Below are positions 2,971-43,391 of a stretch of DNA of 64,000 nucleotides, piece by piece; position 1 is the first letter of the stretch, and each line of letters begins with the position of its first letter. A program made the position numbers and the translations under genes. The notes beneath the pieces were generated by a model that ran no database searches, had not been told where the DNA came from, and worked only from the letters and a program-made list of their open reading frames with translations. Source of the stretch: Elusimicrobiota bacterium (lineage in GTDB: Bacteria; Elusimicrobiota; UBA5214; JBBAAG01); assembly GCA_041658405.1 (NCBI GenBank), contig JBBAAG010000006.1, positions 6,004 through 70,003 on the forward strand, written 5' to 3'.

Positions 2971-2979
2971 TAGGGAATA

Positions 2980-3597
2980 GTGCAAGGGAATAATGTTGAA
3001 CCAAAAGATACCGGTAATCGTGTGTGTAGCGAAAACGAGTTGATAACGAGCGCCATAAACGGCGACCGTAACGCGTTTGGTAAGATTGTAGAGTTGTACG
3101 CAGTACAAGTCTATAACCTTAGTTATCGTTTGACGGGTAACGAACCTGATGCGAAGGATCTTTCGCAGGAAGTGTTTTGCAGGGCATTAAAACTGATTGG
3201 CGAGTTTAAACAGGAAAGCAGTATCTCTACATGGCTGCACAGGATCGCTGTTAATTTGTGGTTGAATAATGTCAAGCACGGGAACATTGTTAAATATGAA
3301 TCTTTAGATAAGTCAGTGGTTAATGAAGAAGATAATGAAATAAAACGCGAATTTATGAGTAATGAACTTGGGCCGGAAGAAAAAGTTGTGGTAAAAGAGT
3401 TTAACCGGTTGTTGCAGGATGCGTTAAACGAGTTGACGCCGGAACAACGTGTAGCGTTTGTGTTGAAGTATATCGAAGGAAAATCGTTGAAGGAAATCGC
3501 AAAGATCTGTAATTGCAGCGTGTCGTTGGTAGGGGTGAGGTTGGCGCGCGCGTTGGTAACGCTGAACGGCAAGTTGAAGCAGTATTATAAAACGTGA
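2980..3597 (+). CDS. ECF-family RNA polymerase sigma-70 factor
   Basis: GTG start with an AGGAG RBS. It carries a region 2 (YRLTGNEPDAKDLSQEVFCRA) and a region 4 HTH (LTPEQRVAFVLKYIEGKSLKEIAKICNCSVSLVGVRLARA). 205 aa. Confidence 0.85.
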   Translation: MQGNNVEPKDTGNRVCSENELITSAINGDRNAFGKIVELYAVQVYNLSYRLTGNEPDAKDLSQEVFCRALKLIGEFKQESSISTWLHRIAVNLWLNNVKHGNIVKYESLDKSVVNEEDNEIKREFMSNELGPEEKVVVKEFNRLLQDALNELTPEQRVAFVLKYIEGKSLKEIAKICNCSVSLVGVRLARALVTLNGKLKQYYKT

Positions 3598-3609
3598 AAA
3601 CAAGGATAT

Positions 3610-4545
3610 ATGTTTATGATGAAATGCAGTGAAGTAAAGGATTTGTTGGTACTGTACGACGAGAAAGAGTTGGATGCTGAGAAACAACAACAGGTAGCGC
3701 AGCATTTGAATGAGTGTAAAGACTGTGCCGCGCTTTTAGCCGGGATGCATAATGTGACACAGTTATACAATTCTATGGGTAAAGAATCCTTACCGCCAAA
3801 CTTTGTGCGGGATGTTCAAAACAAAATCGATGTTGGCGTCGTTGTGCCAAACAAACCTGTTTCCATGATATACCGCCCGCAAACGTACGTGTATTCTGCA
3901 TTGTTGTTGATATGCCTCGCTTGCTTGTATTTTAATGTGAAACCCAAAACACAAATGCAGGCACAGGTACAACAAACGATAACGGCAGTTGTAATAAATG
4001 ATAGTAATCCTAACAAAACAAACGTCACATCTCCTGTAATAAAAGATGTTGCGAAAAAGACAGAAACCGTGGTTTTTCATCCTACGTCAACCGTAACAGA
4101 TGACACGCAAAAAATGGTTATCAACAAAACCGTTACCGTGTTCGCCAAACTACCTGAGGAACGCCAATCGACGTTGCTACGCGGGAAGTCGCAGAATGTT
4201 GATGTTAAACACGTTGTGAAACAATGGCAGGATGTGCGTAGCGGGATAAAAGAAAAAAAGGTGCTGATTATCAAAACCGAACAGGAATGGCGGGCGTTGT
4301 GGCAACAGCATAACGGTAATAACGCTTCGACGCTTCCTTTGCCGGATATAGATTTTGCGAAAAACATTGTGTTCGCAGCGTTTATGGGCGAGCAGCCCAC
4401 CGCGGGGTTTGGGATACAGATAAAAAATATTGAAGAGACTAACACTAAATATTATCTTGATATTGAAGAAGCCACGCCGGGAAGTGCAGCGACGCAAACG
4501 GGACAAAAGATACAACCGTATCATATTGTGGTTATAGATAAATAG
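3610..4545 (+). CDS. membrane anti-sigma factor (zinc-finger N-domain, single TM, PrcB-like C-terminal domain)
   Basis: It starts 12 nt after the sigma gene. HLNECKDCAALLAG is an H-x3-C-x2-C anti-sigma zinc motif. TM helix YVYSALLLICLACLYFNV. The C-terminal ~100 aa (EQEWRALWQQHNGN...YHIVVIDK) resembles the PrcB C-terminal domain. Confidence 0.65.
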   Translation: MFMMKCSEVKDLLVLYDEKELDAEKQQQVAQHLNECKDCAALLAGMHNVTQLYNSMGKESLPPNFVRDVQNKIDVGVVVPNKPVSMIYRPQTYVYSALLLICLACLYFNVKPKTQMQAQVQQTITAVVINDSNPNKTNVTSPVIKDVAKKTETVVFHPTSTVTDDTQKMVINKTVTVFAKLPEERQSTLLRGKSQNVDVKHVVKQWQDVRSGIKEKKVLIIKTEQEWRALWQQHNGNNASTLPLPDIDFAKNIVFAAFMGEQPTAGFGIQIKNIEETNTKYYLDIEEATPGSAATQTGQKIQPYHIVVIDK

Positions 4546-4555
4546 TATAGGTTGC

Positions 4556-7500
4556 ATGGATAGGAAATATATGAAGTTCAGAAGAAAACTGTTGTTGTTA
4601 ATATTAATAACCCTTATTCCGGTAAATGTGTACTCGCTGGGGTCTACGCCGACGGTGACTATTGACAGTATCGTCGGGTCAAGCGGGACGATACGGGTAA
4701 ACTATACCGCGTACGATACGGACGGGGACAGCGTTACTACTACCGAATGGCAATACAGCCGAGATAACGTTAATTGGAACGATATTTCGGAAGATACTAT
4801 CCGTAACAACTATTATAAAACACCAGGAACGTCGTATGTTAATTGGGTGAGTACATTATTCCTTTCCGGTTTCTATGATGATTCTATGTGGTTCAGGATG
4901 AAAGTAGTGGACAATTCTGGGAATGGAGATATCAATAATTTTGTTTATTCGCTAAATAAAGTTCCAATCCCTTCATATGGACATAATGCTGTAGTAAATA
5001 AAAACAGGATTTATCTCATAGGGGGGAATTCTAATAGTGGACATTTGGATACCGTTTATAATACAACAATTAATTCTGATGGAAACATCGGCGAATGGTT
5101 TCTTTCCGCAAACAGGATACCTCAAGAATCTTGTCTGCATTCTAGTACTTTATATAACAATTATCTTTATGTGACAGGAGGGGAACCCTACGGAAATGAT
5201 AATGTTTTTTATACAAAAATACACGATGATGGCAGTATTAGTAGTTTTCAAACGTCAGCGCATAAAATTCCCACAGGAGTAATGGGACATTCTTGTGTAG
5301 CATATAACGGATATTTATATATTATCGGTGGACTTGATTCTAATGTACATGCTGTTGATAAAATATATTATGCAAAAATAAACAATTCTAATGGTAGTAT
5401 ACAAGATTTTCAAACATCAACTATCACATTGCCAATTCCTTTGTATTACCTTTCTGGTACTGTGTATAATGGGTATGTATATATAACTGGTGGAAAAAAT
5501 AATTCTGTTAATTCATTTAAGGTCTACTATGCAAGATTGAGTGATGACGGAAGTATCGGTTCTTTTAATGAAGCAAATTCTATGGCTATAGAGCAACATT
5601 CAAGTGTGATTTACAACGATTGTCTTTATCTCGTAGGTGGAGGCAGAATATATTACGCAAAAATAAATAACAGTGGTGTCTTAAACACATTTGCCATTAT
5701 CACAAGCACCATCTCACTGCAACAAGCATTCTGTATAGCGAAAAATAACAAAATTTATGTTGTAGGAGGTTACATTAGTAGTAATTTATATCCCAGTGAT
5801 ACAGTATATTATGCAAATATACAAAGTGGGTTGGTGACCCAGGATTATTCAAATACTTTTTCATTGTTAATAAACAACAATGATTCTCCCATAGTGACAT
5901 TAAATGCATCGACGGGAATACAAACTACTTCGGATATAAATATTTCTTATACAATAACTGATACGTTTGCCGATAACTTATCGTTATACTGCGAATACTC
6001 TACCGACGGTGGAGCGAATTGGATCCGCGCGACGGTTAACGGGACAACGAGTTACTACAATGTTGTCAGCGCGTCGGGAACGGTAATATGGAAGTCGCAA
6101 GTCGACCTCGGGGTAAGCGTCTCTACGTTCACGGTAAGGTTCAGGATAACGCCGTCAGATTCACAGATTTTAGGTACGCCGGTAAGTACATCCGACTTCG
6201 GCGTTGACAACCGTCACAACCCGATTTTAACAATTTCCGGAATCAGTGATAATATGAAAGAACCCAGCGGGGTGATAAAAATCAGTTATACCTCTGTCGA
6301 TCCCGATGGTAACAATTTACAAACCTCCAATTGGCAATACAGCCGTGATAACGTAACCTGGTATGACATATCAAGTTCTGCAATAACTAATAATGAATTG
6401 AAACCTCTTGGGGCGTCGTATATTTTGTGGAACACCCAGTCAGGGACGAACAATCTTAACCTCGTAGAAGACGCAAGTGTATGGTACAGAATGAAACTTA
6501 CCGACGGCGTATTTTATTCGTGTTACCAAACCACGGGACCGTTTGCGGTGGACAACTACGTCAAACCGGTCATAACGTTATCGAATATATCCGGTGAGGT
6601 TACTAGTAATACAATTACGTTTAATTACACAATCACTGCGGCACCCGACGAAAACTTATCCTTGCTTTGCGAATATTCAGCTAACAACGGGACTGACTGG
6701 TCTCCCGCTATAATCAATAGTTCGACTTACAACATTACCAGCGGTCAGTTTAGCGGTAATCTTGTTTGGAACTGTGTGGGAAATATTTCAAGCGGGACTG
6801 ATAACAGCAACATTTACTTCCGTGTTACACCCTATGGCCGTGCGTTAGGATTGGCGACGACGTCGAATCTTATTCACGTGGACTACAATACCCCGCCCGC
6901 GGTTGTCGTGAATGACATATTTTCGGTGGTAAGAGACACAGTGGCGATTACTTATACTTTATCTGATACGAATAATGATGTGTTAAGCATAGTTTGTCAA
7001 TACTCTACCAACGGTGGGAGTACATGGAAACCCGCGACTGTGGTGGGGAGTACTGCAAATATTGATAGTAGCCATTATTCCGGTTCGCTGGTTTGGTACT
7101 CAAATTTGGATGAGCCGAATATCAACGTAACTACTACGAAGTTTAAAATTGTACCCTACGACAACGACCAAGGGACAGCGGATGATACTATTAATTTTCA
7201 AGTTGAAAACGTTGCTGAACCACCAAGTGTTACTATTACAAGCGTCGAGGGTACTAATGGAACAATAAAAATTAATTATACCGTTTCCGACCCCGATCCA
7301 GGGGAACAGGTTACTACTACTAAGTGGCAGTATAGCACCACTAGCAGCACCGGTCCCTGGTATGATATTGATTCAGAATATATTAGTAATAATTTTTATA
7401 AGCCAGTTGGGACATCGTATATTCAATGGAATAGTTTGGTTGCACTTAATGGTGTTTATGACGATAGTATCTGGTTTAAAATGAAAGTAGTGGATAATTC

Positions 7501-10165
7501 TGGAAATGGTAGTATAGGGAATTTTAGTACTTCTACAAATGTTATTCCGGTAGGTGTAAATGGCCATTCTAGTGTTGTTTACAATGGTTATTTATATATT
7601 ACAGCGGGTAATATGATATATTGTGCAAATCTCAATACTGATGGAAATGTGGGGAGTTTTATTACTACATCATCAACTAGTATGCCCACGAGTTACTCTC
7701 ATCATTCCAGTGTTGTTTATAATGGTTATCTATACATTACAGCTCGTAATACGGTATATTATGCGAAACTTAATACGGAGGGTAGTATAGGAAGTTTTAG
7801 CACTTCACCAAACCTTATCCCGACATCGTTGGGGTACCATTCCAGTGTGGTTAATAACGGATATCTGTATATTACAGGTGGAAACAATGGTAGTATTCTA
7901 AATACGATATATTATGCAAAAATTAACTGTGACGGTAGTATTGCTTCATTTCAGACGAATAGTAATACCATTCCCAGTCATTTGGATAGACATTCCAGTG
8001 TGGTTTATAACGGATATTTATATATTACAGGAGGTAATGGCGGCATAAGTTTGCTTAATACGGTATATTATGCGAAACTCAATGCCGATGGCAGTGTGGA
8101 AAGTTTTAATATTTCCTCAAACACTATTCCTACTTCGTTGTTTGCACATTCCAGTGTAGTGAATAACGGTTATTTATATGTTACCGGAGGATGTATTGGC
8201 GTTCCTACCAACTTAAACACCGTATATCTTGCGAAACTCAATGCTGATGGTAGTATAGGAAGTTTTAGTACTTTACCAAACACTATCCCGACTTCGTTGT
8301 ATGACCATTCCAGTGTAGTGAATAACGGCTATTTATATATTACCGGAGGGAGGAATAGTGAGCATGATGGCGTCGGTTTCAACACCATGTATTATTCCGC
8401 GTTTACTAATCTAACTAGTGGTTATGTGATTTCTTCATCGTTTCCAATCGATAATACTGACGAAACTTCGCCAACTGTACCGAGTTATATTTGGGATGGG
8501 ACAGGTGCTGATGTTGATACAACGCTATCACTTACGACATTATCCGCAAACTGGGGTACGTCGTACGACCCGGAGTCAGGAATTTCAAAATATTGGTATG
8601 CTATTGGTTTGACACAGGGAACGACAGATTTTGTCGAATGGACTGATGTTGGTCTTTCAACCTATGTCGTGAAAACAGAATTAACATTATCGTTAGGTAC
8701 AACATACTATTTCAGCGTCAAATCTGAAAACGGTTCTGGATTACAAAGTACTGCAACTGTTTCCGATGGAATATTAATAATCGGTGATATCACTCAACCA
8801 ACTAGACCAAGTTACATTTGGGACGGATTGGGAAACGACATTGATTTGTCAGTATCAACCACCACATTATCCGCGAACTGGGGTACGTCGTCCGATCCAG
8901 AGTCGGGAATCGCAAAATATTGGTACGCTATCGGTACAACACCAGGAACGACGGACTATCTCGACTGGACTGACATCGGATTGTCAACATATGTTATCAG
9001 AACAGGTTTAAACTTGAATTTTGGAACGACATATTATTTCACCGTAAAATCAGAGAACGGCGCGGGGTTGCAAAGCTCATTCCGTGTTTCCGATGGTATA
9101 TGTGTTATTTTAATTTCTACTGGCAGCAATCCGGTTGACCTTACTCCTCCGGCAACGCCCTTAATAACGTCAACCACACATCCAGAACACGATACCACGT
9201 ACGCAAACAGTTTCGCGAGGTTTACTTTTACAATGCCCAAAAGTGATGAGTCCGGGATTAGAGGGTATTATTATTTGTTAAACGGCAACAGTTCTACCTC
9301 GGTTATTCCGGAAACCGGGATTTTTGTTACGTGGGACACGATAACGTTGTCAAACTTAACCGACGGCGTGTTGTATCTCCACGCGATAGCGATCGATAAC
9401 GCGGGTAACTGGTCTTCTGCAAACACTGCGCATTACAAGTTTACCGTACGGCTTACGATTGACCCTGCGCAGGATACTGCGTTGGTATACAGCGACGGGT
9501 TAAAGATTGACGTTCCCGCGGGTACTGTGGCTGGTACCACGAAACTCGAGGTTACGCGTCCGGATATAATCAACCTCCCCCGGGTAATTAATGATCCTCA
9601 GGTTAAAGACACGAATATTGTAGTAGAAATCAAGTTTACCGACGGAACGACGGAGTTAGCAAAAGATATTACCATAAGTATTCCGTATACCGCTAACGAC
9701 ATTCCCGGGCTGGACGAGAAAAACCTTCGCGTGTTTTATTGGCATGAAACCAAGAACGGGTGGGTGTTGATCCCGGACTCTCACGTGGATACTGCTGCGA
9801 AAAACGTTATTGCGCGGGTGAACCATTTGTCGTTATTCAAAGTTATGGAATATATTCAGGGTGAGAATACTATAGAAAACTTGTCGAACTATCCTAACCC
9901 GTTCAAAGCGGGCAATGATGCGACAAAAATACGGTATATCCTCCAGAACGATTCCAACGTAAAAATCCGTATCTACGACTTAATCGGCGACTGTGTATGG
10001 GAACAAAACGTTGTTGCTGGGACTGTCGGGTCAAGCCTCGCGGGGCCGAACGAAGTGTACTGGGACGGTAGAAACAGCGCAGGCGATATTGTGGATATCG
10101 GGTCGTATATCTGTGTTGTTGAAGCAAGCGGCGTAGTGTTGAAGACGAGGATTGGAGTGAAATAG
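4556..10165 (+). CDS. 1869-aa secreted multidomain protein: signal peptide, Ig-like modules, two Kelch-type beta-propellers, three Fn3-like domains (two in tandem), C-terminal T9SS-type/FlgD-Ig-like sorting domain
   Basis: It starts 10 nt after the anti-sigma gene. Signal peptide KLLLLILITLIPVNVYS. Six or seven Kelch-like blades (HSSVVYNGYLYITGG...YYAKLNADGSIGSF) occur twice. Three Fn3-like modules follow. The C-terminus reads NYPNPFKAG...KIRIYDLIGDCVWEQ...GVK, typical of T9SS CTDs. Confidence 0.85.
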   Translation: MDRKYMKFRRKLLLLILITLIPVNVYSLGSTPTVTIDSIVGSSGTIRVNYTAYDTDGDSVTTTEWQYSRDNVNWNDISEDTIRNNYYKTPGTSYVNWVSTLFLSGFYDDSMWFRMKVVDNSGNGDINNFVYSLNKVPIPSYGHNAVVNKNRIYLIGGNSNSGHLDTVYNTTINSDGNIGEWFLSANRIPQESCLHSSTLYNNYLYVTGGEPYGNDNVFYTKIHDDGSISSFQTSAHKIPTGVMGHSCVAYNGYLYIIGGLDSNVHAVDKIYYAKINNSNGSIQDFQTSTITLPIPLYYLSGTVYNGYVYITGGKNNSVNSFKVYYARLSDDGSIGSFNEANSMAIEQHSSVIYNDCLYLVGGGRIYYAKINNSGVLNTFAIITSTISLQQAFCIAKNNKIYVVGGYISSNLYPSDTVYYANIQSGLVTQDYSNTFSLLINNNDSPIVTLNASTGIQTTSDINISYTITDTFADNLSLYCEYSTDGGANWIRATVNGTTSYYNVVSASGTVIWKSQVDLGVSVSTFTVRFRITPSDSQILGTPVSTSDFGVDNRHNPILTISGISDNMKEPSGVIKISYTSVDPDGNNLQTSNWQYSRDNVTWYDISSSAITNNELKPLGASYILWNTQSGTNNLNLVEDASVWYRMKLTDGVFYSCYQTTGPFAVDNYVKPVITLSNISGEVTSNTITFNYTITAAPDENLSLLCEYSANNGTDWSPAIINSSTYNITSGQFSGNLVWNCVGNISSGTDNSNIYFRVTPYGRALGLATTSNLIHVDYNTPPAVVVNDIFSVVRDTVAITYTLSDTNNDVLSIVCQYSTNGGSTWKPATVVGSTANIDSSHYSGSLVWYSNLDEPNINVTTTKFKIVPYDNDQGTADDTINFQVENVAEPPSVTITSVEGTNGTIKINYTVSDPDPGEQVTTTKWQYSTTSSTGPWYDIDSEYISNNFYKPVGTSYIQWNSLVALNGVYDDSIWFKMKVVDNSGNGSIGNFSTSTNVIPVGVNGHSSVVYNGYLYITAGNMIYCANLNTDGNVGSFITTSSTSMPTSYSHHSSVVYNGYLYITARNTVYYAKLNTEGSIGSFSTSPNLIPTSLGYHSSVVNNGYLYITGGNNGSILNTIYYAKINCDGSIASFQTNSNTIPSHLDRHSSVVYNGYLYITGGNGGISLLNTVYYAKLNADGSVESFNISSNTIPTSLFAHSSVVNNGYLYVTGGCIGVPTNLNTVYLAKLNADGSIGSFSTLPNTIPTSLYDHSSVVNNGYLYITGGRNSEHDGVGFNTMYYSAFTNLTSGYVISSSFPIDNTDETSPTVPSYIWDGTGADVDTTLSLTTLSANWGTSYDPESGISKYWYAIGLTQGTTDFVEWTDVGLSTYVVKTELTLSLGTTYYFSVKSENGSGLQSTATVSDGILIIGDITQPTRPSYIWDGLGNDIDLSVSTTTLSANWGTSSDPESGIAKYWYAIGTTPGTTDYLDWTDIGLSTYVIRTGLNLNFGTTYYFTVKSENGAGLQSSFRVSDGICVILISTGSNPVDLTPPATPLITSTTHPEHDTTYANSFARFTFTMPKSDESGIRGYYYLLNGNSSTSVIPETGIFVTWDTITLSNLTDGVLYLHAIAIDNAGNWSSANTAHYKFTVRLTIDPAQDTALVYSDGLKIDVPAGTVAGTTKLEVTRPDIINLPRVINDPQVKDTNIVVEIKFTDGTTELAKDITISIPYTANDIPGLDEKNLRVFYWHETKNGWVLIPDSHVDTAAKNVIARVNHLSLFKVMEYIQGENTIENLSNYPNPFKAGNDATKIRYILQNDSNVKIRIYDLIGDCVWEQNVVAGTVGSSLAGPNEVYWDGRNSAGDIVDIGSYICVVEASGVVLKTRIGVK
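4943..5850 (+). repeat. Kelch-type beta-propeller repeat array 1 (coding repeats)
   Basis: Repeated YLIGG/YVTGG/YIIGG...YYAKIN..GSI..F blades about 45-50 aa apart, preceded by an Ig-like module (WQYSRDNVNW). Confidence 0.6.
7561..8400 (+). repeat. Kelch-type beta-propeller repeat array 2 (6 blades of about 144-156 nt)
   Basis: Six near-identical units HSSVV(Y/N)NGYLYITGG...YYAKLN(A/T)DGSIGSF..N.IPTSL. The Ig-like module at 7221-7540 is about 60% identical to the one at 4636-4945, which indicates an internal duplication of module plus propeller. Confidence 0.7.
8471..9124 (+). repeat. tandem Fn3-like domain duplication (2 x 327 nt)
   Basis: PTVPSYIWDGTGADVDT...YYFSVKSENGSGLQSTATVSDGILI and PTRPSYIWDGLGNDIDL...YYFTVKSENGAGLQSSFRVSDGICV are roughly 70% identical. 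Confidence 0.7.
9878..10165 (+). other. T9SS-type C-terminal sorting domain (Por_Secre_tail/FlgD-Ig-like) of the 1869-aa protein
   Basis: NLSNYPNPFKAGNDATKIRYILQNDSNVKIRIYDLIGDCVWEQ...GSYICVVEASGVVLKTRIGVK follows the YPNPFN...V.L.IYD..G..V...G.Y CTD pattern. Confidence 0.6.
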
Positions 10166-10190
10166 TTTACTCAAGAAACTCGAAAATATT

Positions 10191-12200: not shown

Positions 12201-12277
12201 TACCCTCCCCTATAAAAAATAAATATCGCCAATAATCTATATGTATTGTAAAATACATCATGCAATAGGGGGATTTT

Positions 12278-14392
12278 ATGATATTGATACAAACAATATT
12301 GACTGCTGCAGTATTATTATTGACTACAATCTCAGGTTTTGCTGAATCAAAAGATTTTACGTTTATCCAGCTTACTGACGGGCATATGGAAAAAGGCGCG
12401 GTGTACCTATCGTCGACTATTGCCGAGATTAACAAGCTAACACCCGCGCCGGAGTTCGCGGTATTCACCGGCGATTTCGCGAATTACGGAACCGTACGTG
12501 AGTTCGATAAGTATGCGCAGATAATGGATGGACTTAACTATAAGTACTACACGGTTCTTGGTAATCACGAGACACAGAATAACGATGTCGGGTACTATAC
12601 GTACCAGCAACGTTACGGCAGTCCATACCATTCGTTCGACCACAACGGTATCCATTTTGTGTTACTCAACACCGGAGTGTCTTCAACCGGTGCAGGGTTT
12701 ATCACAGCTGCGCAGCTGGAGTGGTTGCGTTCTGACCTACAAAAAATAGGAACACAAATGCCGGTATTCCTGTTCTCCCACCACCTGCCAACGGATAGAG
12801 GTATTGGCAATAACGTGGAGGTTTATCAGGTGATTAAAGATTATAATATCCGCGCGTGGTTCACCGGGCATTTACATGCAACAAGGCATTTTATATGGAA
12901 TGGTATTCACGTGTTGGTAACCAAAGACACGCTTACCTGCGGCTATCGTATCATTCAGGTAAAAGGGGATAAGGTGTTCACTTATAACAAAGAAGTCGAT
13001 AAGCCTGAATCACCGGATAAAGTGGTGATTGGCCTGTATACAAAAAAATCTGCGCCCGAGTACGAACTCATATCTCCGGGGTATCAGGTTGATACTGCAA
13101 CGTCCATTACTTGTGCGGTTAAGTTTTCAACATTAACACTTACCGCAGTGAAAGCGTCCCTTCGCGCGAAGGTGGACCGCGATACAACATACACGCTTGT
13201 GTACTCTACGATAACACAGTTGTGGCAACAAAACATTCCAGTGATTCAGGGGAATCATACGTTGATAATACAGATGGTACTCACTGAGAAAACAACGTTT
13301 TATTCCGGCAACGTAGTGTCTACCGGCACAATAGGGTATATTTGGGAAAAATCTTATAACTTTACCGTCGGAGATAACGCAGTAGCGTGGAAGTACGCAA
13401 CTGGTGATATGGTGATATCAGCGCCGGTGGTTGAAAATGGAAATGTTTACTGCGGTTCAGCAGATGGAACAATGTATTGTTTATCTGCGAGTACCGGCGG
13501 AGTGAAGTGGAAATACGCAACTAACGGCATAATCTCCGGTGATCCTGTCATTTATAAGGACAAACTTATATTTGGTTCTCATGACGGTAATGTTTATGTG
13601 TTGGATAAAACCGCGGGGGCGTTGTACTGGAAATACACGAGTACTGTGCCGGTATATTCCACGCCGGTAGTAGCTGAGTCAAAGGATGGGGATTTTAATA
13701 ACACGCGGATCGTTGTTGCGCATGGAAACGGATTAATAGCAGGGCTTTCCTTTACCGACGGGACGGTATTGTGGCGATACAATACAAAATATGCGGTATC
13801 AATTTGCCCGGCATATAACCGTGAAAACGGTACCGTTTATTTCGGCGGGTGGGATGGGTATACCCGCGGGATTTCTGTTTCCACAGGCGGTGTGGTATGG
13901 TCCCGTCGTATTTATCGCGGAATGTGGGGCGCACCGGGGTCGAACTCGCCGGTGATTGACGGGGATAAACTGTACCTCAACGATATCGGTAAAGTGTACG
14001 CGTTAACCTTGTCCTCCGGCAGTACGGTATGGAGTTCGACTGTTACACATAGCACGTCAAAACCTGTGATTTATGGAGATAAAGTTATCGTATGTTCTTC
14101 TGACAATAAAGTACAGGCGTATGATAAAAGTACTGGCGCGTTGTTATGGCGGGTACAAGCTAAGCATGGGATCCACCGCGCACAACCGGTGATTTACAAC
14201 GATTATCTTGTGATATCCACATCCTGGGGTACGGTACATATTATGAATCCCGATACCGGCAAAATTGTGTATAATTACCAATTATCTGATTATCAGGTAA
14301 CATCAACACCGTGTATAATGTCAGGTAAGCTTTATATTGGCTCTTCTGACAAAAACGTGTATGCGGTTGAGCTTGATAGAATTATGAAGTAA
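12278..14392 (+). CDS. secreted calcineurin-like metallophosphoesterase fused to a PQQ/BamB-like beta-propeller
   Basis: Signal peptide. MPE motifs are LTDGHM, FTGDFANYG, LGNHE and GHLHATRH. The C-terminal PQQ-type repeats include AWKYATGDMVISAPVV, CLSASTGGVKWKY and VLDKTAGALYWKY. 704 aa. Confidence 0.75.
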   Translation: MILIQTILTAAVLLLTTISGFAESKDFTFIQLTDGHMEKGAVYLSSTIAEINKLTPAPEFAVFTGDFANYGTVREFDKYAQIMDGLNYKYYTVLGNHETQNNDVGYYTYQQRYGSPYHSFDHNGIHFVLLNTGVSSTGAGFITAAQLEWLRSDLQKIGTQMPVFLFSHHLPTDRGIGNNVEVYQVIKDYNIRAWFTGHLHATRHFIWNGIHVLVTKDTLTCGYRIIQVKGDKVFTYNKEVDKPESPDKVVIGLYTKKSAPEYELISPGYQVDTATSITCAVKFSTLTLTAVKASLRAKVDRDTTYTLVYSTITQLWQQNIPVIQGNHTLIIQMVLTEKTTFYSGNVVSTGTIGYIWEKSYNFTVGDNAVAWKYATGDMVISAPVVENGNVYCGSADGTMYCLSASTGGVKWKYATNGIISGDPVIYKDKLIFGSHDGNVYVLDKTAGALYWKYTSTVPVYSTPVVAESKDGDFNNTRIVVAHGNGLIAGLSFTDGTVLWRYNTKYAVSICPAYNRENGTVYFGGWDGYTRGISVSTGGVVWSRRIYRGMWGAPGSNSPVIDGDKLYLNDIGKVYALTLSSGSTVWSSTVTHSTSKPVIYGDKVIVCSSDNKVQAYDKSTGALLWRVQAKHGIHRAQPVIYNDYLVISTSWGTVHIMNPDTGKIVYNYQLSDYQVTSTPCIMSGKLYIGSSDKNVYAVELDRIMK

Positions 14393-14412
14393 TTGAAGGG
14401 GGAAGTACGGAA

Positions 14413-15156
14413 ATGCTTATCATAGGCCATCGCGGGTCAAGTTTTATCGCGCCGGAGAATACGTTAGCGTCAATTAATCTTGCATGGAAACAAGGAGCGG
14501 ATGCGGTTGAGATTGATATTAGGTTGACAAAAGACGGGCGTGTGGTTGCAAGCCATGACGCAAGCGCGTTAAGGATGGCTGGTGTGGATCTTACAATCGC
14601 AACCTCAACTTTCGCGGAATTACGCGCATTGGACTTCGGGAAAGTTAAGGATGAGAAGTATAAAGGCGAAACTATACCTTCACTTGAAGAAATTATTGAT
14701 ACTATCCCCGCAGGTAAGGTTTTGGTGGTAGAAATAAAAGCCGGGCTTGAGATTCTTAATGAATACTGCCGGATTGTTAATTCCAGCAGTAAGAAAGCGC
14801 AGGTATTGAGTATCGGGTTCGGGTACGAAACTATGGTTGAATGTAAGAAGATGATGCCTGATAATATTGCGTTGTATTTGGTTAGTACAAAAAAAGATAA
14901 GGATACCGGTATTTATGCGCCGTATGATATTGATGCGGTAATCGCAAAAACGGTAGAAGGTAAACTCGACGGGCTTGATGTTCATTATGTACCCGTGAAT
15001 TCCGAGTTTGTAGATAAAACTCTTGACGCAAACCTGCAGTTATACGTATGGACAGTGAATGAAGTAGTTGAAGCGCAGAGGCTAGATTCTATTGGAGTGG
15101 ATGGGTTGACGACGGATAAGCCGGATGTTATGCTGCGTAATCTCAATCGTAGATAG
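14413..15156 (+). CDS. glycerophosphodiester phosphodiesterase (GDPD family)
   Basis: LIIGHRGSSFIAPENTLASI...AVEIDIRLTKDGRVVASHD is the canonical GDPD HR(G)...E(N)T...E.D...DG..V..HD motif set. 247 aa. Confidence 0.8.
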   Translation: MLIIGHRGSSFIAPENTLASINLAWKQGADAVEIDIRLTKDGRVVASHDASALRMAGVDLTIATSTFAELRALDFGKVKDEKYKGETIPSLEEIIDTIPAGKVLVVEIKAGLEILNEYCRIVNSSSKKAQVLSIGFGYETMVECKKMMPDNIALYLVSTKKDKDTGIYAPYDIDAVIAKTVEGKLDGLDVHYVPVNSEFVDKTLDANLQLYVWTVNEVVEAQRLDSIGVDGLTTDKPDVMLRNLNRR

Positions 15157-15203
15157 GTGTGTGAGTATAATTTAATAAATTTGAGTATAAACCGGAGGAC
15201 AAC

Positions 15204-17144
15204 ATGACGTTCAGGTCTATAATTCTTGCATTAGTATTTGTTGTAATATCCGCATTGTGGGTATGGAAGTTTGAGTTAATGCTTTTGTCCTGCAACCTTA
15301 CAGAAGCCATCCCACCGATACCTGCGCTTGCCGGGTTGATATTTTTGGTAGTTCTTTACCCGCTGCTAAAATATCTGGGCGTAAAAAACCTGCTTACCCG
15401 CGGTGAAATTATGGTAGTGTTTATCTTCAACGTAATTGCAACGTTGATGTTCAGCATAGGCGTATTCCAGGCATTCCTGCCATACACCAGCGTGTTGTAT
15501 TACCACGATACTGTACTTAACAAATATGCTGATTTCAGGCAATATGTCCCGTCCTGGTTTGGCCCGCGGGATCCGGAAGTTATCCGCGGATTTTGGGAAG
15601 GTACGCCGGACGGCGCGGTACCCTGGGCACACTGGATTAAACCGTTGGCAGTATATCTCGGCTTCTTTTTATTGTACTGGTGGATCGCTACCTGTGTGTG
15701 GACAGTAATGAGAAAGCAGTGGGCGGAAAATGAGAGGTTGACATTTCCGTTGCTGAGTATTCCTCTGAGTTTGAGCGAAGAAGCGGCAGGAGAAAAGTTG
15801 CATGCTAAAGATGAGAAACCGTTTTTGTCCAACCCGTTAATGTGGCTGGGGTTCAGTATTGCCGGGATTAGCCAGGTGTTCAATCTGTTAAACACGATTG
15901 ACCCGTCGTTTCCAGCTTTAGGAAACTATTTCAGGTTCAGCACAATTTTTACGGAGCAGCCGCTGAAGTCAATTTCCGGGGTGATACTCGCGCACCGGCC
16001 GGAAGTCGTGGGGTTAGGATACCTTGTTCCGTCAGAAATATTGTTTTCCACCTGGATTTGTTATTGGATTGAACAGCTGGTAGTAGTGGCTGGCGCAGTG
16101 GTAAAAACTAATGTTCGAGGGTTTCCTCTAATCAATGAACAAGGTATTGGCGCGTACATGGCAATGGTAGTTATTGTGCTGTATGTTGCGCGGAAACATT
16201 TGTATATCGTTTTTAAGAAAGCGTTTACCAGCGCGCCGGAAATCGACGATAAAACTGAACCGTTACCTTACCGCGTAGCAGTTTTTGGCGGCCTGCTCGG
16301 GTTTATGGTGTTGATAGGTTTTTGTATGATCAGCGGGATGTCGCCATGGCTTGCGATCTTTTTCTTTGGTGTACTATTAAGTTTTGTGATGGTTTACGGC
16401 CGTATCCGCGCAGAGACAGGGATTCCGTCTGTTTGGACCTTGCCTATCTCACAAATAAAGAGCGCAACTTACCATATATGGGGGACGGATACGTTGACAT
16501 CGCTGGGCGGGTCGCTCTCAAGCCTAGCAATATTATCGTCATTTGGATTTATGATGAACGGCGGGTTTTTTAATCAAAGTACGGTGTATCAGCTTGAAAG
16601 TTTTCAATTAGGCGATAAAACCGGTGTTTCCCGCCGGCATATTGTGTGGCTAGGCCTCGGCGCAGTATTCACCGGGTTTATCCTGGGTGCAATAATGTAC
16701 CTCTCAACATATTACCAGTACGGGTTGAACAACCTAACAACGGGAACACGGACAACGTATAGCTTGCAGATATGGAATGAAGTTACTACCGCGGTGAGTA
16801 CGCCGCCAATTGCGTATTTTGCGCAAAAAGTTGCGTATGCCGCAGGGTTTGTGATTACGGGAATAATGTTTGTGATCCGCCAATTCGTATGGACAAAAAT
16901 GCCGTTGAACCCTATCGGATACCTCATTGCAACTAACGGCGCAGCTACGCATGTATGGTGGCCGTTTTTTGTCGCATGGGTGTGTAAAGGTATAATATTC
17001 AGGGTCGGCGGTGTGAAATTGTATAAAACATTGATCCCGACATTTTTGGGGTTGGTAATCGGGCAGTTTTTCTTTGCTGGAATATTCTGGGGATTTATTC
17101 ACTTATTCTTTCCGCAGTTGAAGTTCCATATATGGTTTACGTAA
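15204..17144 (+). CDS. large polytopic integral membrane protein of unknown function (>=12 TM)
   Basis: 646 aa, highly hydrophobic throughout, with no recognisable catalytic motif. It sits where a periplasmic adaptor would be expected, upstream of the OMF and RND genes. Confidence 0.6.
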   Translation: MTFRSIILALVFVVISALWVWKFELMLLSCNLTEAIPPIPALAGLIFLVVLYPLLKYLGVKNLLTRGEIMVVFIFNVIATLMFSIGVFQAFLPYTSVLYYHDTVLNKYADFRQYVPSWFGPRDPEVIRGFWEGTPDGAVPWAHWIKPLAVYLGFFLLYWWIATCVWTVMRKQWAENERLTFPLLSIPLSLSEEAAGEKLHAKDEKPFLSNPLMWLGFSIAGISQVFNLLNTIDPSFPALGNYFRFSTIFTEQPLKSISGVILAHRPEVVGLGYLVPSEILFSTWICYWIEQLVVVAGAVVKTNVRGFPLINEQGIGAYMAMVVIVLYVARKHLYIVFKKAFTSAPEIDDKTEPLPYRVAVFGGLLGFMVLIGFCMISGMSPWLAIFFFGVLLSFVMVYGRIRAETGIPSVWTLPISQIKSATYHIWGTDTLTSLGGSLSSLAILSSFGFMMNGGFFNQSTVYQLESFQLGDKTGVSRRHIVWLGLGAVFTGFILGAIMYLSTYYQYGLNNLTTGTRTTYSLQIWNEVTTAVSTPPIAYFAQKVAYAAGFVITGIMFVIRQFVWTKMPLNPIGYLIATNGAATHVWWPFFVAWVCKGIIFRVGGVKLYKTLIPTFLGLVIGQFFFAGIFWGFIHLFFPQLKFHIWFT

Positions 17145-17175
17145 AGTGTTGATGTAAACTATTTGTTATATATCG

Positions 17176-18444
17176 ATGTCTAATTATATTATGAGTTTAA
17201 AGACAGGTTTTTTGGTTATAGCAGTTGGTGTTATTATAAACACAACGGTGTTTGTACCGGTACACGCAGAACCTATGCCGTCATTAACTGAATGTGTTTC
17301 TTATACGATAACAAACCCTGAGTTGCTTAGGTTACAGGAACAAAAAGTTCGGCAGGTGAGCGAGCATATCGGGCAAGCACAGGGTGATCAATTCCCGGAT
17401 ATCCGCGCGGGATACAAAAATTACCTTACCGGTATAATATCTTCGAGGATGGCGGATGTGAACGAACCAAAGATTACGGTAACCCAGCCGCTATATTACG
17501 GCGGGAAAAAGAAGGTTGCGGTACAATCTGCTGAACATGAACTTACCCGCGAGAAAATGTTGTTGGAAAGCGTTAAACGCGATATAGCTGCAGGGGTTAC
17601 TGAAACGTTTTATAACATCGCGGAGTACGATATTGATATACGTAACACAGATGAAACTATTGAATTACTAAGGAAACGGGTAAAAGAACTGTCTGACCGT
17701 GTACGTATCGGTAAGTCGCGGGAAAGTGAAGTATTGACATTAGAATACCGTATCTCTCAATTTCTTGCGCAACGTGAACAGCTGGTGTATAACCGTAAGA
17801 CTTCGTTAGAAACATTGGCGTACTATACCGGCAAAAGTTTTGATGGTATTAACTATACCGTGAACGCAGGAAGTGTTACTGCCGTCACATTTGAAGATTG
17901 TTGTTCGAATATCAGGGGACGTTCTGACCTCAAAATGTTAAAGGAAGAGCTGGAACTCCAGTCATTACGCGTATTAACCGCAAAAGCGGGTTTATTACCA
18001 TCAGTATCACTGACTAACAGCTGGAACCTGTGGAAACTGGTGGAAGACGGGACCGGTTGGGACTTAACCCTGTCTATTGATTACCCGTTATACCGCGGCG
18101 GGATGATTAAATCGTTAGTGAAAGAAGAAGAGATTAAGAAAAGTATCGTCGAAGAACAAATCGCGAGGAAAGAACGGGATATACGGCTTGAACTCACGAG
18201 GATATATAATAACTATTCTTCTGCGATAGCGCAAATATCTCCTTTACGTAATGCGTATGAAAAATCTGTTAAAAACTATGAGCTTCAATTACAGGATTAT
18301 AAGTATAGCTTGGTGAATAACCTTGAAGTATTAACCGCGATGACTACGATGCTGGAACTCAAACGTGCGGCTGACCGCGCAGAAGTTCAGGTGGGCTATA
18401 ACGCATCAATGCTGAGGGTGTTAACTGAACAGTTTGGGATGTAA
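17176..18444 (+). CDS. TolC-like outer membrane efflux protein (OMF/OEP family)
   Basis: Signal peptide, two OEP repeats and a coiled-coil-rich sequence (TQPLYYGGKKKVAVQSAEHELTREKMLL...). 422 aa. Confidence 0.75.
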   Translation: MSNYIMSLKTGFLVIAVGVIINTTVFVPVHAEPMPSLTECVSYTITNPELLRLQEQKVRQVSEHIGQAQGDQFPDIRAGYKNYLTGIISSRMADVNEPKITVTQPLYYGGKKKVAVQSAEHELTREKMLLESVKRDIAAGVTETFYNIAEYDIDIRNTDETIELLRKRVKELSDRVRIGKSRESEVLTLEYRISQFLAQREQLVYNRKTSLETLAYYTGKSFDGINYTVNAGSVTAVTFEDCCSNIRGRSDLKMLKEELELQSLRVLTAKAGLLPSVSLTNSWNLWKLVEDGTGWDLTLSIDYPLYRGGMIKSLVKEEEIKKSIVEEQIARKERDIRLELTRIYNNYSSAIAQISPLRNAYEKSVKNYELQLQDYKYSLVNNLEVLTAMTTMLELKRAADRAEVQVGYNASMLRVLTEQFGM

Positions 18445-18463
18445 AAAGGAGTAATAACCAATA

Positions 18464-21400
18464 ATGTTGTCTGACATATCAATAAAAAACCCGGTATTCG
18501 GATGGATGCTATTGATTGGTATCATCGTATTTGGCGGCCTTTCGTTTATGACACTTGGCGTAAGCCAGTTACCCGACGTAGACGCGCCTGTATTGAGTAT
18601 AAGCGCGTCATGGGAAAACGCAGCGCCGGAGATTATTGAAACAACAATTACGGATATTATCGAAAGTACGGTTATTGGAATCCAGGGCGTGACAGAAATT
18701 AATTCTTCATCAAGAAAAGGGCAGGCATGGATAACTGTTACGTTTGATATCAATAAAAACATTGATGTTGCGTTACAAGAGGTTCAGAGCAAGCTTGCGC
18801 GGGCACAACACTCGTTACCGGAAGATATGGAACCCCCTACAATAATGAAGTCCAATCCGGAAGATCAGCCGATAGTATGGATAACCTTCTCAGGGAAACG
18901 CGGGATGAAAGAACTTATGCAGTTTACCCAGGATTATCTTAAGGACCAGTTCTCCACGATCCCTGGTGTTGGCGAAGTAACCCTTGGCGGGTTCGCGGAA
19001 CCGTGTTTGCGTGTATGGCTGAACTCAGATAAAATGTTGCAAAACGAACTCACAGTTGATGATGTTACCGCAGCGATCGGGTCGGAACATTCTGAAGTCC
19101 CCGCGGGATATATAGACACCGGGACAAAGGAACTTAATATCCGCGTAGTAGGCGAAGCCGGTAGCGTTGAAGAGTTTCAATCAATAATTATTCCTGGCCG
19201 CCGCGGTGCGCCTATGTGGAAAAAGTTCAGGATAAAAGATGTTGCGGATGTTGAAGACGGAATGGCAGATCTCAGGCATATAGCGAGAACGATGGGTGAG
19301 CAGTCGGTGGGGATCGGGATACGGAAACAGCGCGGGACAAATGCTGTGGAAGTTGCGAAAAATGTTAAGAAACGTATTGCGGAAATAAAAAAATTTCTTC
19401 CGGCAGACACAAATCTGTCTATACGGTTTGACACTACAAAGTTTGTTGAAGAATCTATAAAAGAAATGAATTTTGTGTTAATCCTTTCAGTTGTTCTGAC
19501 AGCGTTTGTGTGCTGGCTGTTCCTTGGTTCTATTAGTTCGGCAGTAAATATATTTCTGACAATTCCGATGTCGATTATTGGCGCGTTTTTTGTTATAAAA
19601 CTTTTTGGGTTTACGTTGAATACATTCACGTTATTAGCATTATCGCTGGTCGTAGGGATTGTGGTGGATGATGCTATTATGGTGCTTGAGAATATTACAC
19701 GCCACAGGGAAGCAGGCGAGCCGCGGATACGCGCTGCAATAAAAGGCGCACGGGAGATATCCTTTGCCGCGATTGCTGCTACGTTGTCGATACTCGCAAT
19801 ATTTATCCCCGTAATTTTTATGAAAGGCGTTATTGGCAAAAACTTTTTCCAGTTTGGCGTAACAATATCATCAGCAGTAATGATTTCTTTACTGGGAGCC
19901 TTGACATTAACCCCGATGTACAGCGCGCAGTTTTTGACCGTGGGCCACACAACGGGTATCGGCAGGTTGATGGACCGTATAATGGCGGTATTACGGAAAG
20001 TATATACCTCCCTGCTAGGCCAGTGCTTACGCCATCGCTGGAGGGTAATATTCGTGGCAGTAGTGTTTTTCACGGGGTCATTGTTTTTGTTTAATTTAGT
20101 TAAAAAAGAGTTTGCTCCTGCGCAGGACCAGAGTATGTTGAATGTCCGGATACAAACTGATATAGGGACATCATTGGAAATTACGGATAAAGTATTTGCC
20201 GCAGCAGAACTAGCTGTTATGCAAATACCCGAGTCGCAAACGTATTTCAGTAATTTCGGGGGTAGTGATTCTAACTCCGGCAATATTTCGTTAACACTAA
20301 AAAAACCCAAAACCCGGCCTATAAACAAAAAGAAAAACCGTGTGCTTACCCAGCAGGAAATAATTCCTATGGTCCGCGAGAAAATTAAGGCTGTCCCCGG
20401 TGTACGCAGGGTTACGGTTCAAGACCCGTCGTTGTTAAGTTTTGGCTCGCAACGCGGGTTCCCGGTTGAGTTTACGCTGCGCGGGCGTGACTGGGCAAAA
20501 CTTGCGGAGTTAAGCAAGGAAATGGCAAAACAAATGGATGCTTCCGGCGTTATGACTGATGTTGATAGCGATTATCGTATTGGCGTACCGGAACTCGCTG
20601 TATTACCTGACCGTAATAAAGCAGCGGAACGCGGGGTGAGTATTTCTACTATTGGCAACACAATAAACGCGTTGATTGCCGGTGTGCGTGCCGGTAAATA
20701 TACTGCCGGTGGGAGAAGGTATGATATTCGCGTACAGTTGGTATCGTCGGACCGTAAACAGGTTAAGGATATCAGCAGGATATGGGTACGTAATAACCGC
20801 GGGGAAACTGTGCGGTTATCTGATGTTGTTAGTATAGGCCAGCAGCCTAGTATGCTGTCAATTATGCGGCAAAACCGTGAACGCGCAATCCGCGTATTTG
20901 GCAATATCGCGCAGGGAAAGTCGCAGGGTGAAGCGTTACAGAAGGTTGAAGAAATAGCAAAAAAAGTATTGCCCGAGGGTTATAAAATCGTATTTTCGGG
21001 CAGTTCAAAAACGTTTAAGGAATCGTTTAATAGCTTATACGTTGCGTTAATTCTTGGGATTTTTGTGGCATACATGATACTTGGTGTGCAGTTTAATAGT
21101 TTTATTCATCCGTTCACCGTACTTCTTGCGTTACCGTTTAGTATTTCCGGTGCAGTTATTGCGTTATTGCTAACTCATAACTCGTTGAATATCTACAGCG
21201 CTATCGGTATAATACTTCTGATGGGCATTGTGAAAAAGAATTCTATATTGCTGGTAGATTTTACCAATCAGTTAAGGGAAAAAGGTGAGAATGTTAATGA
21301 CGCGTTGATGAAAGCATGTCCCATACGGTTAAGGCCGATTATTATGACGTCGTTCTCCACTATTGCCGGGGCGATACCTTCTGCTTTGGCGCTCGGGCCC

Positions 21401-21568
21401 GGTGCGGAGTCCAGAATACCAATGGCGGTAGTTATAATCGGCGGTGTATTGTTCTCTACGTTGTTAACCCTTTTTGTAGTTCCTTGTGCATATAGTTTAT
21501 TGTCGCGGCTTGAAAGCCGGGCGCATCAGCAGGAAGTGCATGAAGCTATTAAGGAACTCGGGCAATAA
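18464..21568 (+). CDS. RND efflux permease (AcrB/HAE-type)
   Basis: 1034 aa with 12 TM and two large periplasmic loops. Conserved motifs are VVGIVVDDAIMVLENI and KACPIRLRPIIMTSFSTIAGAIP. Confidence 0.85.
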   Translation: MLSDISIKNPVFGWMLLIGIIVFGGLSFMTLGVSQLPDVDAPVLSISASWENAAPEIIETTITDIIESTVIGIQGVTEINSSSRKGQAWITVTFDINKNIDVALQEVQSKLARAQHSLPEDMEPPTIMKSNPEDQPIVWITFSGKRGMKELMQFTQDYLKDQFSTIPGVGEVTLGGFAEPCLRVWLNSDKMLQNELTVDDVTAAIGSEHSEVPAGYIDTGTKELNIRVVGEAGSVEEFQSIIIPGRRGAPMWKKFRIKDVADVEDGMADLRHIARTMGEQSVGIGIRKQRGTNAVEVAKNVKKRIAEIKKFLPADTNLSIRFDTTKFVEESIKEMNFVLILSVVLTAFVCWLFLGSISSAVNIFLTIPMSIIGAFFVIKLFGFTLNTFTLLALSLVVGIVVDDAIMVLENITRHREAGEPRIRAAIKGAREISFAAIAATLSILAIFIPVIFMKGVIGKNFFQFGVTISSAVMISLLGALTLTPMYSAQFLTVGHTTGIGRLMDRIMAVLRKVYTSLLGQCLRHRWRVIFVAVVFFTGSLFLFNLVKKEFAPAQDQSMLNVRIQTDIGTSLEITDKVFAAAELAVMQIPESQTYFSNFGGSDSNSGNISLTLKKPKTRPINKKKNRVLTQQEIIPMVREKIKAVPGVRRVTVQDPSLLSFGSQRGFPVEFTLRGRDWAKLAELSKEMAKQMDASGVMTDVDSDYRIGVPELAVLPDRNKAAERGVSISTIGNTINALIAGVRAGKYTAGGRRYDIRVQLVSSDRKQVKDISRIWVRNNRGETVRLSDVVSIGQQPSMLSIMRQNRERAIRVFGNIAQGKSQGEALQKVEEIAKKVLPEGYKIVFSGSSKTFKESFNSLYVALILGIFVAYMILGVQFNSFIHPFTVLLALPFSISGAVIALLLTHNSLNIYSAIGIILLMGIVKKNSILLVDFTNQLREKGENVNDALMKACPIRLRPIIMTSFSTIAGAIPSALALGPGAESRIPMAVVIIGGVLFSTLLTLFVVPCAYSLLSRLESRAHQQEVHEAIKELGQ

Positions 21569-25938: not shown

Positions 25939-25956
25939 ATAGGTAATACAATTTAA

Positions 25957-43370: not shown

Positions 43371-43391
43371 CAGATTAGGAGGAAATGTTTT

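Follow-up and report, generated by a model that had tools for sequence, protein, structure and literature searches.

The window analysed here is a stretch of 64,000 nucleotides (64 kb) from an Elusimicrobiota metagenome contig, in which an initial annotation had read about 18.6 kb of co-directional genes as one regulated cell-surface module. We find that the 18.6 kb run is very likely a juxtaposition of independent units, namely a four-gene module (2936–12200) and a set of unrelated neighbours. The four genes encode an extracytoplasmic function (ECF) sigma factor, a membrane anti-sigma factor, a giant secreted protein (the cargo) ending in a type IX secretion system (T9SS)-type C-terminal domain (CTD), and a PorV-like outer-membrane (OM) barrel fused to a transglutaminase (TGase)-like domain. 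They form a conserved unit that is probably sigma-controlled, because the gene order is kept in about nine independent modules, an ECF-type promoter motif is present, and the CTD and the barrel co-diverge. The idea of one regulated module holds for genes 1–4, and it fails for genes 5–9. The four-gene module is not described in the literature that was searched.

Open reading frames (ORFs) of the run were compared with an ORF listing, in which all nine + strand frames are found at exactly the coordinates first assigned to them. The spacers, put initially at 10–77 nt, measure 12, 10, 25, 77, 20, 47, 31, and 19 nt, and no credible opposite-strand gene intervenes: the minus-strand ORFs, such as that at 19177–20328, are antisense within strongly supported genes.

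Conservation of the Module

Modules were identified, in addition to that of the window, in loci L002, L003/L004, L005, L007, L008/L009/L017 (two in tandem), L010/L016, L015, and L018, all annotated with locally built hidden Markov models (HMMs). The full-length homologues of the fused barrel protein (barrel::TGase), which are 37–66% identical, are all from Elusimicrobia, and a scan of genome contigs returned four Elusimicrobia loci together with one Ignavibacteria locus that has the barrel only. The four-gene module appears to be limited to Elusimicrobia, with a phyletic spread that is probably under-sampled, the search being pattern-based.

In every module (9–10 modules) the gene directly 5′ of barrel::TGase ends in a CTD of ~110 aa. 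Genes for the sigma factor and for an anti-sigma factor with zf-HC2 and PrcB_C domains precede the cargo gene in four of the five modules with visible upstream sequence (the window, L002, L003, and the second module of L008), the exception being L010. The genes on the 3′ side vary from one locus to the next: the module is followed by an HD-GYP regulator and an ABC transporter in L002, by MazE and GH20 in L003, by VanZ in L005, and by a second module in the case of the first L008 module. Even in L007, where the barrel protein has 66% identity to that of the window, the neighbour is a convergent GH4 gene. A tblastn search with the nine window proteins against ~100 loci returned no locus that pairs the module with genes for the Metallophos-PQQ protein, the glycerophosphodiester phosphodiesterase (GDPD), the DUF6785 protein, the outer-membrane factor (OMF), or the resistance-nodulation-division (RND) pump that make up the rest of the run. 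The inclusion of the phosphoesterases, the DUF6785 protein, and the OMF/RND pair as module parts is therefore abandoned, since none of them adjoins the module at any other locus and the order of genes 5–9 is not conserved in relatives, a result that the initial annotation itself had named as refuting its proposal.

The tandem locus (L008 1–19261, identical to L009 and L017) encodes a cargo of >3300 aa and a barrel with a Cys→Ser replacement, and then a sigma factor, an anti-sigma factor, a cargo of 1285 aa in which Pfam finds no domain, and another barrel; the tandem arrangement implies that the module duplicates as a unit.

Sigma Factor, Anti-Sigma Factor, and Promoter Motif

The first gene (2980–3597, + strand) codes for a 205-aa protein with regions 2 and 4 only (Sigma70_r2 and r4_2) that matches TIGR02937 at 108.8 bits (cutoff 42.9) and has an adjacent anti-sigma gene 12 nt downstream; it is an ECF sigma factor, as first called, although it scores under every NCBIfam equivalog cutoff. 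Orthologues occupy the same position in L002, L003, and L008, with identities of 36–51%.

The anti-sigma factor (3610–4545, + strand) is a single-pass membrane protein with an N-terminal zf-HC2 domain (aa 6–40; 29.6 bits, cutoff 22.2), a hydrophobic segment at ~aa 93–108, and a PrcB_C domain (aa 254–309; 40.2 bits, cutoff 24). The initial call of a membrane anti-sigma is borne out by these matches; PrcB_C had gone unmentioned. A zinc motif, HLNECKDC, lies at aa 32–39 (H-x3-C-x2-C) with the hydrophobic segment after it, as in members of zf-HC2 (PF13490). The same zf-HC2/PrcB_C architecture is repeated after the sigma gene in L002, L003, and L008, in anti-sigmas that are 29–46% identical. PrcB_C is otherwise known from PrcB, a subunit of the dentilisin protease complex of Treponema. 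No match to the anti-sigma sequence was found in the Protein Data Bank (PDB), and a literature search for PrcB_C or PrcB in connection with anti-sigma factors found nothing relevant.

An ECF-type promoter-like motif, TGTAAA-N16-TGTCTAA, is located at 2936–2964 (+ strand), 16 nt upstream of the sigma start codon. The motif was defined from the upstream regions of four sigma genes (those of the window, L002, L003, and L008), all of which have TG(C/T)RNA-N16/17-(C/T)GTCTAA followed by GGAG and then the start codon; CGTC-like −10 elements are typical of ECF promoters. When the strict pattern TG[CT][AG][ATG]A-N16/17-[CT]GTCTAA was scanned on both strands of the window, the site before the sigma gene was the single match, against ~0.14 chance matches estimated from base composition. 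With a long spacer the cargo gene, too, has the motif in front of it, as is seen at two sites that had no part in defining it: as a second copy in L002, within the 160-nt spacer between the anti-sigma and cargo genes, and in L015. Its conservation is not simply a matter of recent common descent, because the sigma and anti-sigma factors have diverged to the identities given above.

The pair resembles those of the RsiW/SigW and RseA/RpoE types in having a sigma factor with regions 2 and 4 alone, a probably co-transcribed anti-sigma that starts with zf-HC2 and crosses the membrane once, and a predicted autoregulatory promoter with a CGTC-like −10 element. It differs from them in that the sensor domain is PrcB_C, that the sigma falls under all equivalog cutoffs, and that the putative protease is encoded in the regulated operon and fused to an OM barrel.

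The Cargo and its C-Terminal Domain

The third gene (4556–10165, + strand) encodes a 1869-aa secreted Kelch-propeller protein with an N-terminal signal peptide (MDRKYMKFRRKLLLLILITLIPVNVYS). Matches to Kelch families support the first half of its description as a Kelch/Fn3 protein, and the second half was dropped, there being no Fn3 model match at E≤0.01. Cargo bodies differ among modules, ranging from 719 to >3300 aa and containing Kelch, TPR with Kelch, Kelch with DUF2341, or no Pfam domain, and the CTD is always kept.

The CTD of the window cargo (aa 1754–1869; 9815–10162, + strand) is a T9SS type A-like, FlgD-Ig-like sorting domain, and the consensus among modules is YPNPF...IYDL.G...WDG.N..G..V..G.YIC.V...KIGVK. 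TIGR04183 matches seven of seven module CTDs, all at the C-terminus (best E 7.2e-10); the window copy itself, at 22.5 bits, lies just below the cutoff of 23. Module CTDs have further matches in the models of PorU and PorZ, at the CTD regions, and the CTD profile compared with solved structures has the PorU CTD as its best match (6za2_A, E 7.8e-6), with PorZ and the FlgD Ig-like domains also found. The type B CTD model TIGR04131 matches one of the seven (E 0.031). A large protein with a more divergent CTD copy (E 5e-13) is encoded in L012 (14285–17941, − strand) with no adjacent barrel::TGase gene, and CTD proteins apparently also occur outside the module in Elusimicrobia-like contigs.

Pairwise identities among nine modules were compared for the CTD, the barrel, and the TGase region. 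CTD and barrel identities are correlated (Spearman 0.73, Mantel p 0.004), and those of the CTD and the TGase region are not (rho 0.05). Such a pattern would be expected if the CTD and the barrel made specific contact and the enzyme were under a constraint of its own.

The PorV-Like Barrel and the Fused Enzyme Domain

The fourth gene (10191–12200, + strand) encodes a protein with a signal peptide, a 14-strand barrel (aa ~21–294), a beta-sandwich (~315–450), and a TGase-like domain (~456–658). The barrel scores 94.8 bits with the PorV/PorQ family model NF033709 (cutoff 90), and has 14 strands in the AlphaFold2 (AF2) model, which place it in that family; it misses the equivalog cutoffs for PorV (NF033710, 19.3 vs 250), PorQ (NF033711, 64.9 vs 220), and PorV2 (NF052325, 71.4 vs 325). 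In Foldseek the barrel model matches FadL and TodX less well than it does PorV from a T9SS complex with bound substrate, which is the top hit (8gl6_F, E 1.3e-10), and the barrel family profile compared with solved structures finds the Flavobacterium johnsoniae PorV (6h3i_F, E 7e-15). An even number of strands in an OM protein barrel leaves the C-terminus in the periplasm, and because the strand number here is even the fused enzyme domain should be periplasmic.

Putative catalytic residues of the enzyme domain fall in conserved motifs (11856–11999, + strand): Cys556 (11856–11858) in GNC(I/V)EL, His584 (11940–11942), and Glu603 (11997–11999) in LLET. In the AF2 model Cys556 is at a helix N-terminus and H584 at the start of a strand, so that the TGase-like arrangement is present, in which a Cys begins a helix, a His lies on the strand after it, and the third residue is acidic. 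The closest folds are those of true transglutaminases, PNGase, and TGase-like proteases, and not NlpC/P60; the sequence of the TGase region has no matches in the PDB. The initial call of a PorV-like::transglutaminase fusion thus stands for the barrel, for the TGase fold, and for the catalytic residues, and falls short for the Pfam model Transglut_core (PF01841), whose gathering score is missed (20.2 bits vs a cutoff of 23).

GNC(I/V)EL, the His, and LLET are kept in eight of ten modules. The two departures are the first barrel of the tandem locus (L008a), with Cys→Ser, and the L010 barrel, in which Ser, Thr, and Ala replace Cys, His, and Glu. L010 (1453–5977, identical to L016) is also the sole module without sigma and anti-sigma genes, its 719-aa cargo gene being preceded instead by a canonical sigma-70-type promoter (TTGACA-N17-TATACT). 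The coincidence of these losses is only suggestive (n=1) that catalysis may be tied to the sigma/anti-sigma circuit and may not be required for every cargo.

The beta-sandwich and TGase-like region together (11127–12197, aa 313–669) were compared with 1.84 billion representative sequences, among which 1155 relatives were found at E≤1e-3, with 26 reaching E≤1e-30. When 76 diverse relatives are aligned, the Cys and the His are the sole invariant columns, and PF01841 matches only two of the 76. A PorV-like barrel is fused to the domain in ~19 of the best 150 representatives; other partners are CsgG, FlgO, and LpoB-type lipoprotein domains, TPR, PD40, SLH, response-regulator, and AAA domains. These comparisons point to a promiscuous, putative thiol-enzyme domain, mostly in envelope-associated proteins, that is poorly detected by Pfam. 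The same region matches the N-terminal part (positions 11–238) of the NCBIfam model for the anti-phage protein ProA (E 3e-14). A literature search for PorV together with transglutaminase found nothing relevant.

Comparison with Known Cargo-Sorting Systems

The closest parallels are with the PorV shuttle of the T9SS in F. johnsoniae and Porphyromonas gingivalis (6h3i, 8gl6), with which the module shares an Ig-like cargo CTD (~90–110 aa) that has homology to TIGR04183 and the CTDs of PorU and PorZ, and a FadL-type barrel of 14 strands, for which PorV is the best match among solved structures, in fold as in sequence. It departs from that system in several respects: the phylum lies outside the Fibrobacteres–Chlorobi–Bacteroidetes (FCB) group; there is one dedicated barrel for each adjacent cargo, whereas PorV is a general shuttle; the barrel carries a 350-aa C-terminal extension of beta-sandwich and TGase-like domain; control is by a dedicated ECF sigma factor; and no SprA or PorKLMN genes are near the module. 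None of the T9SS core genes (SprA/Sov, PorK/L/M/N, PorU) is found within the 64 kb window.

Pairing of a CTD-anchored cargo with a barrel of its own is familiar from Bacteroidota, where type B CTD cargo is matched with PorP-SprF-like barrels, as in SprB-SprF. As in those pairs, the gene for a large surface protein adjoins that for its own OM barrel, one barrel to one cargo; the differences are that the module CTD is type A-like, that the barrel is of the PorV/PorQ family with a fused enzyme domain, and that a sigma/anti-sigma pair is present. PorU, the T9SS sortase, is a C25-type cysteine peptidase that acts on the cell surface, and is a plausible functional analogue of the enzyme domain, each being a thiol (Cys-His) enzyme tied to a PorV/PorQ-type barrel and CTD cargo. 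In contrast to the gingipain/caspase-like fold of PorU, the domain here has a transglutaminase/papain-like fold, is fused to the barrel, and is predicted to be periplasmic and not surface-exposed.

Proposed Mechanism and Alternatives

The composition of the module is well supported; how it works, we infer. ECF sigma factors are usually released by regulated proteolysis. In the scheme that we favour, the membrane zf-HC2 anti-sigma would hold the sigma factor until a periplasmic signal, received through PrcB_C, frees it, and the freed sigma would then transcribe its own operon and the cargo and barrel genes (positive autoregulation). The cargo would be exported by Sec, and its CTD would attach to the partner barrel in the manner of T9SS CTDs and PorV, so that the barrel retains the cargo at the OM. 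The fused Cys-His-Glu domain could carry out a thiol-dependent cleavage or transamidation, for which the favoured step would be a site-1-type cleavage of the periplasmic domain of the anti-sigma when cargo engages the barrel, with PorU-like processing of the CTD as the alternative. A specific CTD-barrel partnership under ECF control seems to us reasonably probable. The specific role of the enzyme domain is put forward much more tentatively, including the site-1-type cleavage of the anti-sigma that we favour for it.

Several points weigh against this scheme. The model of the full-length barrel protein is moderately confident (pLDDT 71.6), and the periplasmic placement of the enzyme domain is drawn entirely from barrel topology rules. 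A 14-strand barrel cannot by itself translocate a folded protein of 200 kDa, and exposure of the cargo on the surface is likewise something that we infer. The correlation of CTD and barrel identities drops to 0.44 (p 0.035) when the outlier L002 is left out, and to 0.42 (p 0.067) when L007 is left out as well. Since the −10-like element is very near the start codon and overlaps the conserved GGAG region, conservation of the motif could partly reflect translation initiation signals. The link between a dead triad and a missing sigma factor comes from one module, and L008a carries its Cys→Ser replacement with the sigma region upstream of it outside view. Finally, no terminator-like site is found after 12200, and read-through into genes 5–9 in this genome is possible for that reason.

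The affinities of the CTD to type A CTDs (PorU and PorZ have such CTDs) and of the barrel to PorV in a substrate-bound complex, as well as the co-divergence of the two, would also be expected if the module were an accessory of a canonical T9SS encoded in full elsewhere in the genome, with the barrel as a cargo-specific PorV/PorQ paralog and the TGase domain replacing the PorU sortase, so that it would remove the CTD and link the cargo to a glycolipid on the surface. Transpeptidase activity is possible for Cys-His enzymes, and PorU is itself a cysteine peptidase. This explanation is an unlikely one given that the window has no T9SS core gene, that the fused domain is periplasmic by topology rules whereas PorU acts on the cell surface, and that the catalytically dead L010 keeps its cargo and CTD, so that catalysis is not essential for every cargo. 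It is also at odds with the reviews, which in their accessible text describe the T9SS as confined to the FCB superphylum, and with the accessible parts of the literature mentioning both Elusimicrobia and the T9SS, in which no T9SS is reported for that phylum.

A role in tethering or remodelling the envelope was also considered, in which the TGase/papain-fold domain would act on peptidoglycan or another periplasmic polymer, either tethering the barrel, and with it the OM and the cargo, to the wall or opening the wall locally, and would play no part in CTD processing or signalling. Cleavage of peptidoglycan peptides is common among papain-fold enzymes, NlpC/P60 for example, but the nearest folds here are true transglutaminases, PNGase, and TGase-like proteases and not NlpC/P60. 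Two observations are in keeping with such a role: the domain family is fused to periplasm-facing OM-lipoprotein domains (CsgG, FlgO, LpoB) and to TPR, PD40, and SLH, and the TGase domain has evolved independently of CTD and barrel. The proposal leaves unexplained why each fusion gene strictly adjoins one CTD cargo gene, why a sigma/anti-sigma pair is dedicated to the module, and why the triad is lost in the sigma-less module, and we consider it decidedly unlikely.

The weakest proposal, that the nine genes together are a single envelope regulon or operon under ECF control, with phosphoesterases for the remodelling of phospholipid or teichoic-like polymers at the surface and a pump for the export of some product connected with the giant protein, accounts for the tight co-directional packing, the short spacers, the lack of a predicted terminator inside the run, and a loose motif match at 17153–17182, and is nonetheless very improbable, because genes 5–9 accompany the module at no other locus, even at 66% identity, the strict motif is absent before any of genes 5–9, and the neighbouring genes have contexts of their own. 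The nine-gene unit was accordingly rejected on synteny, on the distribution of the promoter motif, and on the independent contexts of DUF6785 and OMF-RND. The loose match has 18-nt spacing and a −10-like element that overlaps the OMF start codon, for which reason it cannot drive the OMF gene, and it is probably a chance occurrence. Co-directionality is a regional property: the + strand stretch begins before the sigma gene with three further genes, for an HMGL-like protein (224–1189), EamA (1199–2050), and an esterase (ending at 2921).

Genes 5–7

Genes 5–9 are, as far as sequence comparison indicates, neighbours of the module only. The functions first assigned to them are all supported by Pfam matches, to Metallophos and PQQ, GDPD, OEP for the OMF, and ACR_tran for the RND pump; the protein described simply as a polytopic membrane protein belongs to DUF6785 and DUF6784.

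Gene 5 (12278–14392, + strand) encodes a secreted protein with a Metallophos domain, a PQQ-like propeller, and a signal peptide. The 77-nt spacer in front of it (12201–12277), which no other in the run exceeds, is AT-rich, with sigma-70-like hexamers at 12192–12220 and 12226–12254 and an inverted repeat, CCCCTAT...ATAGGGG. A terminator or structured RNA at this position was considered and rejected, the repeat folding no better than shuffled sequence (z −0.64). A second secreted Metallophos and PQQ-propeller protein is encoded in the window at 32915–35314; it is 799 aa long, is 25% identical to the product of gene 5, has an extra MetallophosN domain, and lies in an unrelated context, after a CE2/GDSL esterase with PKD domains (30460–32409). 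The architecture is therefore that of a multi-copy family in this genome, which is a further point against the nine-gene regulon.

The GDPD (14413–15156, + strand; PF03009, 134.7 bits) has no signal peptide and is cytoplasmic. The DUF6785+DUF6784 polytopic membrane protein (15204–17144, + strand; 382 and 70 bits with the two Pfam models) has relatives in L012, L013, and L014 that adjoin genes for rhamnosidase, DUF4838, cellulase, and GH53 and never the OMF/RND pair or the module; in L012 (8001–14217) two DUF6785+DUF6784 copies flank a rhamnosidase gene. This association with glycoside hydrolases suggests that DUF6785/DUF6784 proteins may be related to carbohydrate transport. The possibility that DUF6785 is a substitute adaptor or partner of the OMF/RND pair was discarded, as it is missing from all 80+ OMF loci.

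An OMF-RND Cassette

The last two genes, for a TolC-like OMF (17176–18444; OEP) and an MdtB/AcrB-like RND pump (18464–21568; ACR_tran), form a two-gene cassette (17176–21568, + strand). The nearest relatives of the OMF, in L020 and L021, are 24–28% identical to it, and each is followed directly by an RND gene. A metagenome scan with an OMF alignment yielded 80 loci, whereas one with the RND protein alone yielded none, and an informative set of 70 was drawn from these 80 together with L020 and L021 (L020–L101). In 68 of the 70 the RND gene comes directly after the OMF gene, starting within 120 nt of its stop codon, with a median gap of −4 nt, and the cassette is evidently autonomous. Its RND proteins are 45–65% identical to that of the window, and its OMFs only 23–33%. 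The commonest neighbour is a MarR regulator, upstream in 10 loci.

The initial description of the pair as lacking an adaptor is confirmed, in that the 64 kb window contains no gene for a membrane fusion protein (MFP) adaptor and the pair is a real, conserved, autonomous cassette. Among the genes that flank the 68 related OMF-RND pairs no MFP-like adaptor family turns up repeatedly, and an adaptor may be encoded at some other place in these genomes. Over positions 1–1017 the RND protein aligns collinearly with MdtB and AcrB, and it therefore has no fused adaptor. The cassette is like the tripartite pumps AcrAB-TolC and MdtABC-TolC in this collinearity and in having an OMF of the TolC/OEP family, and is unlike them in having no adaptor gene in the operon or its flanks and in the OMF and RND genes usually overlapping by 4 nt. 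No description of such a cassette was found in a search of the literature on MFP-less RND operons. Given that a cassette with no adaptor gene occurs at 68 or more loci, one may ask if certain RND pumps can dock to their channel with no periplasmic adaptor in between.

Other Features of the Window

Downstream of the run are a DUF1846 gene (21589–23103, − strand), genes for a glycyl-radical enzyme and its activase (23653–26775), and a tRNA-Asn gene (35382–35456), which is the only structured RNA found by Rfam over the window. These are followed by TonB/ExbB and a TonB-dependent receptor (42702–47164), a GH127 gene (47192–49009), an ice-binding-like protein (50535–51437), a MacB-type ABC system adjoining an unannotated 340-aa gene (55529–58413), and pyruvate:ferredoxin oxidoreductase (59451–61121).

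Implications

Two signature parts of the T9SS, a type A-like CTD and a PorV-like barrel, are now found in Elusimicrobia, having been treated as specific to Bacteroidota and the FCB group in the literature as far as it is accessible. Their wiring in Elusimicrobia is different: each cargo has one barrel, a Cys-His enzyme is fused to that barrel, and the ECF sigma/anti-sigma pair is private to the module and has a recognizable promoter. At its furthest, this arrangement could be a self-contained, CTD-dependent surface-display system of the Elusimicrobia, in which the barrel::enzyme protein replaces the multi-protein attachment complex of the T9SS (PorU, PorZ, and PorQ), handles one giant cargo each, and reports engagement of that cargo to the private sigma factor through cleavage of a PrcB_C-type anti-sigma; we offer this as a speculative and rather improbable reading. 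If true, sorting coupled to signalling in this way would be new, and the system could be a forerunner or an offshoot, in evolution, of T9SS cargo handling. The module also points to a large family of thiol-enzyme domains, with ~1100 representative clusters, that is poorly detected by current Pfam models, and, as a compact system of four genes, it allows CTD recognition, covalent processing, and envelope signalling to be tested together.

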